A DNA stretch of 31,872 nt from Methanobacteriota archaeon. Its GTDB lineage: Archaea > Thermoplasmatota > SW-10-69-26 > JACQPN01 > JBQTJL01. Each line of letters opens with the position of its first letter. Within the stretch, counting starts at the first letter, position 1. The translations under genes and the position numbers were made by a program. Location of the stretch: contig JBQTJL010000389.1 in NCBI GenBank assembly GCA_052387135.1, forward strand, positions 1 to 31,872. The letters are read 5' to 3'. The notes below the pieces were generated by a model. That model had not been told where the DNA came from and did not search any database. It saw only the letters and a program-made list of their open reading frames with translations. Positions 23,857-27,858 of this stretch are shown one piece after another.

Positions 23857-24088
23857 TGCAGGCCGCGTGCGATCGTTCCTGTTCATGCAGGCAGCGTGCC
23901 ACCACTCCTGTTCATGCAGGCAGCGTGCGAGCACTCCTGTTCGTGCAGGCAGCGATGCAGTGGCTCCTGTACGTTGCATGGGAGCGTCCGGCGGCCGGCG
24001 ATGCACAGGAGCTGAGCCCGCTCCCGGCAACACACAGGAACTGAGCCCGCTCCCGGCAACGCACAGGAGAAGAGCCCGCGGCCGTGCA
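23857..24088. repeat. 232-bp composite inverted element: two opposing arrays of 29-bp repeats with imperfect terminal inverted repeats (MITE/BIME-like)
   Basis: Left units tcctgttcatgcaggcagcgtgc-N6 at 23877, 23906 and 23935 (partial copies at 23856 and 23965). Right units (g/a)cacagga(g/a)ctgagcccgctcccggcaac at 24003 and 24032, partial at 24061. Ends tgcaggccgcg / cgcggccgtgca. Confidence 0.85.
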
Positions 24089-24577: not shown

Positions 24578-25804
24578 TCACCGGTTCCGGCGCCCGAGGA
24601 GGAGCCCTGCGAGTCCGACCGCCGCAAGGAGGAGCGCGACCGGCGGAAGCGGCGTCCCGGAGCCGGAGTCGCCCGAGCGTTCCGCGCCCGTGACCGTGAA
24701 CCGCCCCTCTTTCATCGGCGTGCGGAAGCCCTCGAAGGAGACGTACCCCTTGAACGTGTGCTCGCCGGGCTTCTCCGGCGAAAAGAACGCATCGAGCGTG
24801 ACGGTCTCGCCGGCGGGCACCCGGAGGGGCTCGCTCGATTCGACCGCGACGCGGCGGCCGGCGAGGAAGACGCCGACCGTGAACTTCGCGTCCCGGATCT
24901 CGACCGGGCCCGTGTTCGCGAACTCGCCGGAGAGCGCCACGACCTCGCCGACGACGCCCGCCGGGTCGGCGAAGAGCTTCTTCAACGAACCTTGGACGCG
25001 CGCGGTCGCGCCTTCGGTCGACGCGCCTTCGGCAAGGACGCGGAACGAGAGGGGGAACGGCTCGGAGCCCGTCGCGGCGTTCGCGAGGGTCGCCGTCGCC
25101 TCGTAGAGGCCGGCGGGGAGCCCGCGGGAGGCGCGGAGAGTCTGGGTCTCGCGCGCGCCGGGGAGGACCGGCGTGCCCTGCAGGTCCTCGCGGAGGACCT
25201 CGGCCCCGTCGGCGTCCTTCACGACGAGCGCAAGGGTCGGCGCCGCGCGGACGTTGCCGCGGTTCGCGAAGTCGCCGGCGACCGCGATCGGCGCGCCGCT
25301 TGCCGCGTCCGCGATCTTCAGGTTCGCGGCCGCGAAGCGAAGGACCTGCTCGCCCGCGACGAGGATGCGGACCGCCGGCGCCACCTCGACGTTCAACGCG
25401 GCGCCCGAGCCGGCCGGTTCGCCCGTGCCGGTCGCACGGATCCGGATCGTGCCGCGGTGCTCGCCGTTCGGGGCGTCCGCGGGGACGGCGACGTTCACGG
25501 TGAGCGTGCGGGTCCCGTCCGCCGGGATCTCGAACGTGCCCGCAGGCTCGAACGAGAGCCATGGGGCGACGGTGCCTTCGGGCGTCACGTCGACCGCGGT
25601 CGGGCTGTGGAAGCCGTTCTGGATCCGGAGCGTCGCGCGGAACGCGCCGCCGCGGACGAGCGGCGGGTCCGTGAGGGAGACCGTGACCGGCGTCACGCCG
25701 AACGACTCGGGGGGGCCGTCGGTCGCCTGCGACGTCGCGAAGGGCACGAAGAGGGAGAGGACGAGCGAGGCAAGGAGGACGGCCGGGGCCGCGCGCGGCT
25801 TCAT
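24578..25804 (-). CDS. Secreted multi-Ig-domain protein with C-terminal TM anchor, DUF916/DUF3324-like (WxL-interacting or pilin-chaperone-like)
   Basis: Signal peptide; FGVTP start of the mature domain; GAALNVEV; FANRGNVRAAP; VLPGARE; GLYEA; third beta domain FANTGPV; C-terminal TPLPP-TM-RR sorting-like signal. ATG 25804 overlaps the upstream stop. Confidence 0.75.
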   Translation of the reverse strand: MKPRAAPAVLLASLVLSLFVPFATSQATDGPPESFGVTPVTVSLTDPPLVRGGAFRATLRIQNGFHSPTAVDVTPEGTVAPWLSFEPAGTFEIPADGTRTLTVNVAVPADAPNGEHRGTIRIRATGTGEPAGSGAALNVEVAPAVRILVAGEQVLRFAAANLKIADAASGAPIAVAGDFANRGNVRAAPTLALVVKDADGAEVLREDLQGTPVLPGARETQTLRASRGLPAGLYEATATLANAATGSEPFPLSFRVLAEGASTEGATARVQGSLKKLFADPAGVVGEVVALSGEFANTGPVEIRDAKFTVGVFLAGRRVAVESSEPLRVPAGETVTLDAFFSPEKPGEHTFKGYVSFEGFRTPMKEGRFTVTGAERSGDSGSGTPLPPVALLLAAVGLAGLLLGRRNR

Positions 25805-26685
25805 GAGGAGGCCTCCGCGGCGGCGCCGATCGTGAGTCGGCCGCGATACGTGGCGGCCGGGATGAACTGCTCCTCGCCGGTCGGCATGTGGATGTCGAAG
25901 TAGGCGTTCTTCTCCGCCGTCGCCCCCGGTGCCAAATTGAAGTTCGCGTCGGAGACCGGCGGAGACGTCGCGAGCCCGCGCTCGCCGGCCATGTCGGCGA
26001 CGCTTGCGTAGCGGATGCGGGACGCCGAGATTGTGGCGTCGCCCTCGGGGTTCGTAAGGTCGGTCGCGGAAAGCGCGAGGTCGACGACGACGTTCCCCGT
26101 GTTCCGGATCGCGACCGTGCTCGGGGCGGCGTGGGTCGACGCGCCGGGCCCGATCGCGCCGCTTCCGAACGAGACGCTCGAGGACCCGAGCGAGATCGCA
26201 AGGAGCTCTTCGTAGTGGAAGGTCGCCTCGATGGTGCGGAGGTCGTTCGCGCGGTCCTTCACGGAGAGCCGGACCTTGTAGGCGCCCGGCGGGTCGTAGT
26301 AGTTCATCGTGAAGCTCGCCTCGAACTCCTTCTTCTTCCCCCGCGGTTCGCCCTTCGTGGGGGCCGTGACCGGCTCTCCCAGCGGGTTCCCCTGCGGGTC
26401 GAGGAGCTGGATCTCGGCCTGCGCAAGGTCCCGCCAGCCGTTTCCGTCTTCGGCCGAGGCTACGACCGGGACCGTGACCGTGGTACCGGCACGGGGCGCG
26501 ACCTCGATCCGTTCCGGCGTGTTCGGGTCGGCATCGGCGGCGGAGAGGTCGATCGCGAGGGCGGACGGCGGGTCGTTCCCGACCTGCGCCTGGCTGTCGA
26601 CCTGCGAGCCCCAGCCGGACCCCGAGGCGACGAGGAGGGACGCAACGAGCACGGAAAGGAGGACGGGCGCGCGGGCTTCCATCAT
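25801..26685 (-). CDS. Secreted two-domain (A+B) beta-sandwich protein, candidate major fibre/surface subunit
   Basis: Signal peptide. Domain A: VGNDPP, DGNGWRD, VKDRA. Domain B: VSFG, IRNTGNV, PAATYRGRLTI. ATGA overlaps at both ends; no TM anchor. Confidence 0.78.
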   Translation of the reverse strand: MMEARAPVLLSVLVASLLVASGSGWGSQVDSQAQVGNDPPSALAIDLSAADADPNTPERIEVAPRAGTTVTVPVVASAEDGNGWRDLAQAEIQLLDPQGNPLGEPVTAPTKGEPRGKKKEFEASFTMNYYDPPGAYKVRLSVKDRANDLRTIEATFHYEELLAISLGSSSVSFGSGAIGPGASTHAAPSTVAIRNTGNVVVDLALSATDLTNPEGDATISASRIRYASVADMAGERGLATSPPVSDANFNLAPGATAEKNAYFDIHMPTGEEQFIPAATYRGRLTIGAAAEASS

Positions 26686-27188
26686 GCGACCCCCCGGGCG
26701 GTGACCTCGATCGCGCCGGTGTAGGCTCCGGCCGGGACGTCGGAGTCCTCACCGGAGGGCGCGTCGAGGATGACAAGGAGCACGGTCTCGGAACCGGGGC
26801 CGAGGGTCACGCCCCGGAGGTTCGTCCCGGCCTCGGCAAGCGGCAGCCCCGAGTCGCCCTCCGCGAGGACGACACGGATCGCCGCCGCGGGGATCGAGGC
26901 GCCGTCCGGCCCGGACAGGCCGGGCGTTGCGAGCGCGAGCCGGAGCGGGACGGAACCGGTGTTTGCGAGCGTGAGGCGGACGGGCTCGGACGAGGTCCCC
27001 GGAAGGACGGTCCCGAAATCCACGGCGCCGGGCGCGACCGAGAGCGCCGCGGGTCCTGCGACGGCGGCGATGCCCTCCGCCTGGTCGGCCCCGACGGGGA
27101 CGACGAGGACGAGGCCGGGGATCGGGACGGGCGACGCGAGGCCGAGGAGCACGAGCGCGCCGATGATCGCGAAGAGGCGAAGGGTCAT
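26682..27188 (-). CDS. Secreted single-domain (B) beta-sandwich protein, paralogue of the C-terminal half of 25801-26685
   Basis: Signal peptide; VDFG, LANTGSV, VPAGAYTGAIEV. Start ATG 27188 (GTG 27212 possible). Confidence 0.75.
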   Translation of the reverse strand: MTLRLFAIIGALVLLGLASPVPIPGLVLVVPVGADQAEGIAAVAGPAALSVAPGAVDFGTVLPGTSSEPVRLTLANTGSVPLRLALATPGLSGPDGASIPAAAIRVVLAEGDSGLPLAEAGTNLRGVTLGPGSETVLLVILDAPSGEDSDVPAGAYTGAIEVTARGVA

Positions 27189-27233
27189 GAAGGTCCGGCC
27201 TGCCGTGGGCACCGAGTGCCGGACGGACTCTCT

Positions 27234-27316
27234 TTCGCCGGGTTTTTTGAATGTTCGCCTAGGGACTTCGGCCCGTTCGCCCGGTTTTCGACTAGGAACT
27301 CATGGCAAACCTTATG
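27234..27316. promoter_or_regulatory. Divergent promoter region of the surface cluster with repeated motifs
   Basis: ttcgccSggtttt at 27234 and 27276 (42 bp apart); ctaggRact at 27259 and 27292; aaacCTTATG at 27307-27316, about 30 nt before ATG 27346. Confidence 0.45.
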
Positions 27317-27345
27317 GTGGGCCAATCCGTCGAACGGCCGTCGGC

Positions 27346-27858
27346 ATGCGTGGCTTAATGGTTGCGTTAGCGGGCGCCCTTTTCGTCGCGTTCGCGGTCC
27401 CCCCGTCGGTCGGAGGGGACGTCACGACCTCGGTCGCGGTCGCGAACGCGCCGCCCGCGATCGTGGGCACGTCGGTCTCGGTCGCCCCGACGGTCGCGGT
27501 GGTCCGCTTTTCGACCACGGACGGGAACGGGCACCGCGACGTGTCCGAGGCCCGCGTAGTGTGGAAACGCACGCTCGGAGGCGACGCGGAGGCCCTCGCC
27601 GTCCGGACGTCCGGCGCGGGGATCCGGGCCGAGTGGGAGGCCACGGTCCCGCGCGTGCCGCTCGCGGGGCCGTCCGAGGCGAAGATCATGGTGAAGGACC
27701 GCGCCGGCGCCGTGACACACGCCGTCGTCGGGTTCCGGGACCCCACGACCGGGGTCGCGGCCGGACCGTCACCTCCGACGCTCGCGCTCCGTGCGTTCGG
27801 TGGCGCGCTCGCCGCCGTCGCCGACCTCGTGTTCCGGGCGCTTCACCCGTACCGGTAG
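27346..27858 (+). CDS. Secreted single-domain (A) beta-sandwich protein with a C-terminal hydrophobic helix, paralogue of the N-terminal half of 25801-26685
   Basis: Signal peptide; VANAPP, DGNGHRD, VKDRAG; Pro linker then LALRAFGGALAAVADLVF. Start ATG 27346. Its 3' end overlaps fixCX by 16 nt. Confidence 0.75.
   Translation: MRGLMVALAGALFVAFAVPPSVGGDVTTSVAVANAPPAIVGTSVSVAPTVAVVRFSTTDGNGHRDVSEARVVWKRTLGGDAEALAVRTSGAGIRAEWEATVPRVPLAGPSEAKIMVKDRAGAVTHAVVGFRDPTTGVAAGPSPPTLALRAFGGALAAVADLVFRALHPYR

Follow-up and report, generated by a model that had tools for sequence, protein, structure and literature searches.

Clusters of WxL genes build a pilus, as described for the Elr cluster of Enterococcus faecalis (preprint, October 2026, 10.64898/2026.10.17.759780). 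In that pilus, the membrane-anchored DUF916/DUF3324 protein ElrE acts as the chaperone and donates its residues 139-153 to WxL pilins that are without their last strand, and ElrD, a pilin like ElrC, polymerises by the insertion of an N-terminal strand whose consensus is [S/T]-x-[G/A]-x-[V/I]-x-F (10.64898/2026.10.17.759780). ElrA is acceptor-only and caps the tip, and ElrB combines a donor strand with an LPxTG anchor and terminates the fibre (10.64898/2026.10.17.759780). The WxL system was reported to be confined to Bacillota, from a screen of one proteome per genus at Pfam thresholds (10.64898/2026.10.17.759780). Here, we report a four-gene locus at positions 24578-27858 of an archaeal contig (Methanobacteriota archaeon, assembly GCA_052387135.1, contig JBQTJL010000389.1), of which the whole analysed stretch of 31,872 nucleotides is called the window. 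One of the four encoded proteins, BIG, is very probably a distant member of the WxLIP family. The locus as a whole may encode an archaeal surface fibre that is put together through donor-strand exchange primed by a chaperone, with B as the tip, AB as the shaft, A as the membrane base and BIG as the chaperone, a reading by analogy with Elr that we hold to be evenly balanced between right and wrong. The four genes are:

24578..25804, minus strand: BIG, 408 amino acids (aa), in which a signal peptide precedes three beta-sandwich domains and a transmembrane (TM) anchor with an RR tail forms the C-terminus; proposed membrane-anchored chaperone
25801..26685, minus strand: AB, 294 aa, secreted, two domains; proposed major (shaft) subunit
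26682..27188, minus strand: B, 168 aa, in which a variable linker joins the signal peptide to domain B, its only domain; proposed tip (acceptor-only) subunit
27346..27858, plus strand: A, 170 aa, in which the signal peptide is followed by an N-terminal motif and domain A, with a hydrophobic segment at the C-terminus; proposed membrane base or terminator of donor-only type

A first-pass annotation of the window had called these four genes, with the minus-strand trio coupled by ATGA overlaps, and the arrangement held up. All four open reading frames (ORFs) have coding-type composition, with a G+C content at third codon positions of 0.89-0.94, and both overlaps can be read in the sequence, as gcATGAtg between B and AB (26682-26685) and as tcATGAag between AB and BIG (25801-25804). 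A is transcribed divergently from the other three.

The comparison with the bacterial pilus turns on BIG, which divides into the following parts:

25427..25708, minus strand: BIG domain 1, DUF916-like (aa 33-126), placed by hhalign against the domain B profile; profile-level paralogue of subunit domain B
25346..25402, minus strand: BIG aa 135-153, AALNVEVAPAVRILVAGEQ, the proposed chaperone donor strand; a long strand, or a hairpin, that follows domain 1 and is hydrophobic at every second position
25019..25345, minus strand: BIG domain 2, DUF3324-like (aa 154-262), collinear with EfmWxLIP1 through residue 248
24680..25003, minus strand: BIG domain 3 (aa 268-375), an extra CARDB-like beta-sandwich of which bacterial WxLIP has none, with CARDB-type matches to 2kl6/3idu
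24593..24649, minus strand: BIG C-terminal TM helix followed by GRRNR, from the predicted helix 389-407 and hydropathy

The AlphaFold2 (AF2) model of BIG, built from 150 sequences, has a predicted local distance difference test score (pLDDT) of 90 and shows three beta-sandwich domains and the TM helix. By this model, hydropathy and synteny, the WxLIP architecture is present in full: behind the signal peptide a long strand connects two tandem beta-sandwiches, and there are a TM anchor and small secreted partners, plus the third domain. When BIG-family profiles were searched against 177,635 PDB sequences, the top match was EfmWxLIP1 of E. faecium (9i25_C, 9i1y), at E 9.4e-6 with profile A4 and 2e-5 with profile A3; the 8-sequence profile A2 missed WxLIP in this search, and only the deeper A3 and A4 found it. 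The alignment is single and collinear, running through DUF916, the linking strand and DUF3324 (profile 48-248 against chain 36-261), and it places BIG 135-153 on the interdomain segment of EfmWxLIP1. In the BIG model this stretch holds two DSSP strands (138-141 and 144-149), and its conservation is seen across 99 homologues. In addition, a bridge protein from a bacterial metagenome-assembled genome (MAG), P0165, one of the few BIG relatives that a word-based search with A4 returned, scores above the Pfam WxLIP_PGBD cut-off (34 vs 27.3 bits) and also matches the BIG profile at E 2.2e-12 (hhalign 97.6%, E 4.5e-12); its gene stands behind two small genes, one of which is above the PF13731 (WxL) cut-off. 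Foldseek with the BIG model found WxLIP at E 9e-8 and the CfaA pilus chaperone at E 1.6e-7 among many tandem-Ig proteins, and WxLIP clusters make up 18 of the 100 feature neighbours of BIG in the Atlas. Sub-threshold WxLIP_HBD matches occur in 11 of 99 BIG relatives (best E 1.9e-5), and sub-threshold WxLIP_PGBD matches in 3/8 and in 3/99. The first-pass description of this protein as DUF916-like and anchored by a TM-RR tail is therefore upheld by the top PDB match and the WxLIP_PGBD-positive bridge protein on the one hand, and by hydropathy and the modelled helix on the other. The family is large, as the 8-sequence profile retrieved 9,581 cluster representatives with E<1e-3, of which 711 have E<1e-30, and nearly all of the best 150 relatives are ~400 aa long and matched over their full length.

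A bacterial operon of similar layout was seen in the MAG GCA_046589935.1 (L050:956-3600), where the genes of two small secreted proteins, 182 and 191 aa in length, precede that of a 492-aa, WxLIP_PGBD-positive, TM-anchored protein in high-GC DNA adjoining genes for recA, recX and RNase Y. The C-terminus of the small proteins, GTYTGTLTTTIAAAP, is of the WxL type but has no Trp, and one of the two narrowly exceeds the PF13731 cut-off. This locus may fall outside Bacillota, the range to which the WxL system was reported to be confined.

The subunits are built from two domains and an N-terminal segment, which in AB are arranged as follows:

26566..26607, minus strand: AB N-terminal extension (aa 27-40, SQVDSQAQVGNDPP), the proposed donor strand; a conserved amphipathic strand directly after the signal peptide
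26212..26565, minus strand: AB domain A (aa 41-158), a complete beta-sandwich, weakly PKD/MG2-like, in which D80-x-N82-G-x-x-D86 is invariant
25816..26211, minus strand: AB domain B (aa 159-290), an ASH/PapD-like beta-sandwich ending at a G-x-Y-x-G-x-x-T strand, with a FAP74 ASH match; proposed acceptor

Both paralogies proposed in the first-pass annotation, of B with AB domain B and of A with AB domain A, were recovered. AB domain B matches B in BLASTP at E 1e-10 (32% identity over 127 aa), and with a domain-B hidden Markov model (HMM) B is, besides AB, the sole match in the whole 2.77-Mb genome (3e-13). For domain A, BLASTP against A gave E 8e-6 (33% over 114 aa) and the HMM 17 bits, weaker than in the domain-B case; the paralogy is backed here because the D-x-N-G-x-x-D and the N-terminal motif are shared and A-type genes stand beside the operon in three other loci.

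Domain B is also related to the putative chaperone itself. With hhalign, the domain B profile A5 aligned to BIG profile A4 at 92.5% (E 5e-7) end to end, residues 4-128 of domain B matching BIG 33-126. This alignment ends at the G-x-Y/H-x-G strand, beyond which BIG continues into its strand 135-153, and proteins with domain B terminate a few residues after the G-x-Y strand in 26/26 sequences. We read domain B as being without its final strand because the equivalent strand is followed by one more in four other sandwiches of the system, namely BIG domains 1-3 and AB domain A (AF2 models). From these alignments, domain B would be a paralogue of BIG domain 1 minus the last strand, and a putative acceptor. 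WxLIP chaperones donate a strand from the position equivalent to BIG 135-153.

The proposed donor strand of the subunits is a short motif at the start of AB, among the best conserved positions of the protein and with i/i+2 periodicity. Among 16 sequences, V/I29 is kept in 12, S/T31 in 14, A33 in 12, V/I35 in 16, N37 in 15 and P40 in 16, with variable, polar residues at the positions between. It resembles the ElrD donor-strand consensus. The A protein of the window carries V26-x-T-x-V-x-V-x-N34-x-x-P37 (VTTSVAVANAPP), and four A-type proteins, highly diverged from one another, retain both the N-terminal motif and D-x-N-G-x-x-D. B proteins are without the motif. By hydropathy, AB has a signal peptide and no further membrane segment. 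In the products of A-type genes, the N-terminal motif and domain A are followed by a TM helix and a basic tail at the C-terminus. By analogy, we read B as acceptor-only, AB as donor plus acceptor, and A as donor-only with a membrane segment, the same logic as in ElrA, ElrD and ElrB. The first-pass role scheme, with AB polymerising, B at the tip, A as base and the DUF916-like protein as chaperone or anchor, is consistent with this distribution of putative donor strand and acceptor domain.

The homology of BIG with WxLIP and the truncated domain B fit equally well with a static display complex, in which BIG would bind AB and B 1:1 by strand complementation and hold adhesins or envelope proteins on the membrane with no polymerisation, as in the 'platform' model proposed for WxL clusters in 2023 (Protein Science, PMC10599100). 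Such a complex leaves unexplained the conservation of the N-terminal amphipathic strand in AB and A, as well as the set of acceptor-only, donor-plus-acceptor and donor-only proteins, and in the bacterial system experiment has replaced the static model by a pilus (10.64898/2026.10.17.759780). We consider it unlikely.

In the donor-strand fibre that we favour, strand complementation, polymerisation with its polarity and the part played by each subunit would, as we infer them, combine as follows. All four proteins would be exported by Sec, and BIG would be retained in the membrane by its C-terminal helix, its third domain possibly serving as an added stalk. BIG strand 135-153 would then fill the groove of domain B in newly exported B and AB. 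B would start the fibre as its tip, because it has the acceptor domain only. AB, consisting of an N-terminal donor strand, domain A as a spacer and domain B as the acceptor, would extend the shaft at the membrane, the N-terminal strand of each incoming AB displacing the chaperone strand from the previous subunit. Finally, A would donate a strand and accept none, so that growth would end with the fibre tethered to the membrane, a part that falls to ElrB, by way of sortase, in the Elr pilus.

The pairing of subunit and BIG genes is conserved beyond the window. A word-based database search gave seven relatives of AB, one of them labelled 'Euryarchaeota archaeon', and searches of genomes from the same order or class found AB in 10 of them, the window's own included. 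The BIG gene directly follows AB in 10/10 AB-positive genomes, in the order B-AB-BIG in six loci and AB-AB-BIG in four. Distant BIG homologues with ~25% identity, on contigs with a GC of 0.30-0.70, are likewise preceded by AB-type genes (L026, L048, L051 and L053), the upstream partner in L048 being an A-A-B protein. Two other distant BIG homologues stand on contigs that are too short for their gene neighbours to be seen. A-type genes flank the operon in four loci (the window, L018, L017 and L053). The conserved co-occurrence expected from the first-pass annotation is thus found for the subunit-BIG core, in all 10 AB-positive genomes and four distant contigs, with A-type genes at its side in four loci.

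Other arrangements were seen among the relatives. In L052:7-3105, a 1032-aa protein with faint Big_13 matches, its own TM helix and a charged tail precedes a distant BIG homologue in place of an AB-type gene; this protein may be a large partner of adhesin type, or its gene may merely be adjacent and have no relation to BIG. One related genome has a second AB paralogue with 42% identity (L015:6886-7764; G001:C4:72936-73760), and no B or BIG was detected within ~7 kb on either side of it. In L049, a second, diverged BIG copy adjoins a BIG C-terminal fragment on a 1.9-kb contig (G007:C617:237-1478 and 1527-1844), in a genome that also has a B-AB-BIG operon. Several BIG relatives (L022:1606-2937, L016:7988-9247 and L021:1553-2791) have C-termini composed of a Ser/Thr/Gly-rich linker, P-G-L or P-G-P, a hydrophobic helix and RRR, which resemble PGF-CTERM-type sorting signals. 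A PGF-CTERM/archaeosortase reading of the BIG tails was rejected, as NCBIfam gave no match and the genome of the window, which is 89% complete, yielded no gene of the exosortase family.

The family of the subunits was searched for among known pilins and filament proteins. The first-pass annotation had taken AB and B to be WxL-like, and this did not stand. PF13731 gave nothing at E<=1 in the four proteins, in 16 AB relatives, in 21 B domains or in the whole genome; no Trp-x-Leu motif occurs in the window proteins, where AB ends in ...YRGRLTIGAAA and B in ...YTGAIEVTA, and LYWxL is present only in some distant AB copies. Domain B (A5) reached 3.4% in hhalign against P0169, a bona fide WxL protein above the PF13731 cut-off, no WxL chain was among the top 50 Foldseek matches of AB, and the WxL neighbours of the subunits in the Atlas score only 0.77-0.78. 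These tests together rule out AB and B as WxL domains. A resemblance to Csu/SCPU subunits, also suggested earlier, was not robust. Domain B matched CsuE in the PDB at E 0.006 with A5 and at E 0.19 with the broader A6, and sub-threshold matches occurred among 21 B domains to SCPU (2/21) and DUF4402 (5/21). The SCPU (PF05229) and DUF4402 models had no match in the window's own genome. Membership of domain B in SCPU, CsuE or DUF4402 was dropped, as the signal was lost with the broader profile and in the own-genome search.

The likeness to TasA-type subunits or cannulae fared no better, since TasA/Abp, thread and cannula (CanA) proteins were found neither among the top 50 Foldseek PDB matches of AB nor in PDB and Pfam profile searches. 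This lack of fold and sequence matches counts against a further alternative, a chaperone-free donor-strand filament of AB alone, in the manner of threads, bundling pili and cannulae, with BIG as an anchor, an adhesin or an unrelated partner. All archaeal donor-strand filaments known so far have been described without a chaperone, and the invariant D-x-N-G-x-x-D might recall the calcium-dependent assembly of cannulae. BIG, however, is always adjacent to the subunit genes and has a homologue with demonstrated chaperone function, and we regard a filament of AB alone as highly improbable.

The PF13731 and hhalign results on the subunits count against the fibre reading, and a number of other results do so as well. 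With PF06030 (WxLIP_PGBD), the sole match in the whole genome is on BIG, at 10.8 bits and E 0.86, below the gathering score, and hmmscan of BIG gave no PF06030 match at E<=1. PF11797 (WxLIP_HBD) has no match on BIG in its own genome. Pfam matches of the BIG relatives are all sub-threshold and fall in many Ig-like/E-set families (CARDB in 35/99), and Foldseek on BIG lists ciliary ASH-domain proteins first, with WxLIP at rank 34 among 449 matches. The kinship between domain B and BIG domain 1 exists at the profile level only, pairwise BLAST giving no match, and hhalign of domain B against the small BIG alignment (A2) reached 54%, with the same end point at residue 125. The AF2 model of AB (16 sequences, pLDDT 90, residues 1-30 poorly defined) shows two confident, well-formed sandwiches; its N-terminal segment has lower pLDDT and no strand, and the N-terminal motif, which directly precedes domain A, could instead be part of that domain. 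For stand-alone A, the word-based database search returned no homologue, A-type genes were seen in only 4 loci, and the C-terminal segment of A in the window, a protein with a signal peptide, is weakly hydrophobic (Kyte-Doolittle 1.6).

Some of these results would suit ordinary co-transcribed secreted Ig-like proteins, be they envelope, S-layer-associated or substrate-binding proteins of CARDB/PKD type, whose motifs would reflect common beta-sandwich ancestry and involve no strand exchange. The spread of sub-threshold Pfam matches over many E-set families fits this explanation, as do the confident folding of both AF2 monomers and the Foldseek search with AB, which gave only generic tandem-Ig proteins, e.g., RbmA, HPI S-layer and MG domains. 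It does not account for WxLIP being the single best PDB sequence match, collinear over two domains, for the bridge protein P0165 in a WxL operon of the same layout, for translationally coupled synteny that is kept down to ~25% identity, or for a domain B that always ends at the penultimate strand, and we find it quite improbable.

The surroundings of the locus contain a few additional features:

27189..27345, no strand assigned: divergent intergenic region with AT-richer tracts read in the sequence; candidate promoters for B-AB-BIG and for A

The operon's neighbours are uspA and FixC/ETF genes. No usher-like gene is among them and none of the four proteins carries a class III signal, which agrees with the first-pass annotation on both points. 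The window has a G+C content of ~70%, and in this DNA spurious long ORFs of 362 aa (26770-27858, plus strand) and 732 aa (24578-26776, minus strand) traverse the real genes; automatic longest-ORF calls would be wrong here because the real starts are internal ATGs. Between a SRPBCC-like gene and uspA, at window positions 23857-24088, the same short peptide-coding unit is repeated in the ORF translations of both strands, which fits a palindromic 29-bp repeat element.

Taken beyond this genome, the donor-strand fibre reading leads to a wider proposal, which we advance tentatively and with slightly less than even confidence: that an archaeal chaperone-dependent donor-strand-exchange pilus pathway shares ancestry with WxLIP, that its acceptor domain arose from the chaperone's domain 1 by loss of the last strand, and that the BIG family marks a widespread, overlooked fibre system. 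The locus indicates that a distant branch of the DUF916/DUF3324 chaperone family exists in Archaea, accompanied by subunits of a distinct type and by a putative base anchored in the membrane. If the fibre reading is true, this would be the first chaperone-assisted donor-strand pilus in Archaea and BIG the first candidate for a factor that assembles donor-strand filaments in this domain, offering a candidate answer to how such filaments are primed, and domain B as BIG domain 1 minus its last strand would constitute an evolutionary link between chaperone and subunit. The BIG profile also provides a handle for annotating thousands of archaeal proteins now called hypothetical or 'CARDB-domain'.

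Among described systems, Gram-negative chaperone-usher pili (Caf1M, CfaA and CsuC, with Csu/SCPU pilins) are alike in the proposed principle, as a chaperone strand would complete an Ig-like subunit until the N-terminal strand of the next subunit replaces it. They differ in that the archaeal locus has no PapD_N homology, usher or outer membrane, and in that its putative chaperone is membrane-anchored. Archaeal filaments offer partial parallels, since the threads (Saci_0406/0405) have two-domain subunits and the Sulfolobus thread locus has a donor-only partner (Saci_0405). The threads, bundling pili (AbpA, TasA-like), Tat-dependent pili/tafi and Pyrodictium cannulae have no identified chaperone, whereas the present locus has a WxLIP-family candidate. 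The E. faecium WxLIP (9i1y, 9i25) and the csc/WxL clusters of lactobacilli, in which CscA is the DUF916 protein, share with BIG the C-terminal TM anchor and the operon with small secreted proteins; unlike them, BIG lies below both Pfam cut-offs, has very low identity and an extra domain, and its partners are without WxL motifs.

The closest counterpart is the Elr/WxL pilus. In both systems a membrane-anchored protein of the two-domain DUF916/DUF3324 type, of which BIG is a profile-level homologue, is encoded last behind small secreted subunits; there is no usher; the proteins fall, as we read them, into acceptor-only, donor-plus-acceptor and donor-only-plus-anchor types; and the putative N-terminal donor strand has a pattern of small residues alternating with variable ones. 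The archaeal locus is distinguished by its host, by subunits that combine a PKD-like domain A with a domain B related to the chaperone's first domain and not to WxL, by the third domain of BIG, by a base held through a membrane segment and not through LPxTG and sortase, and by Asn in place of Phe at the last motif position. With these likenesses and differences, the locus is best filed as an archaeal variant of the WxLIP-chaperone donor-strand pilus.

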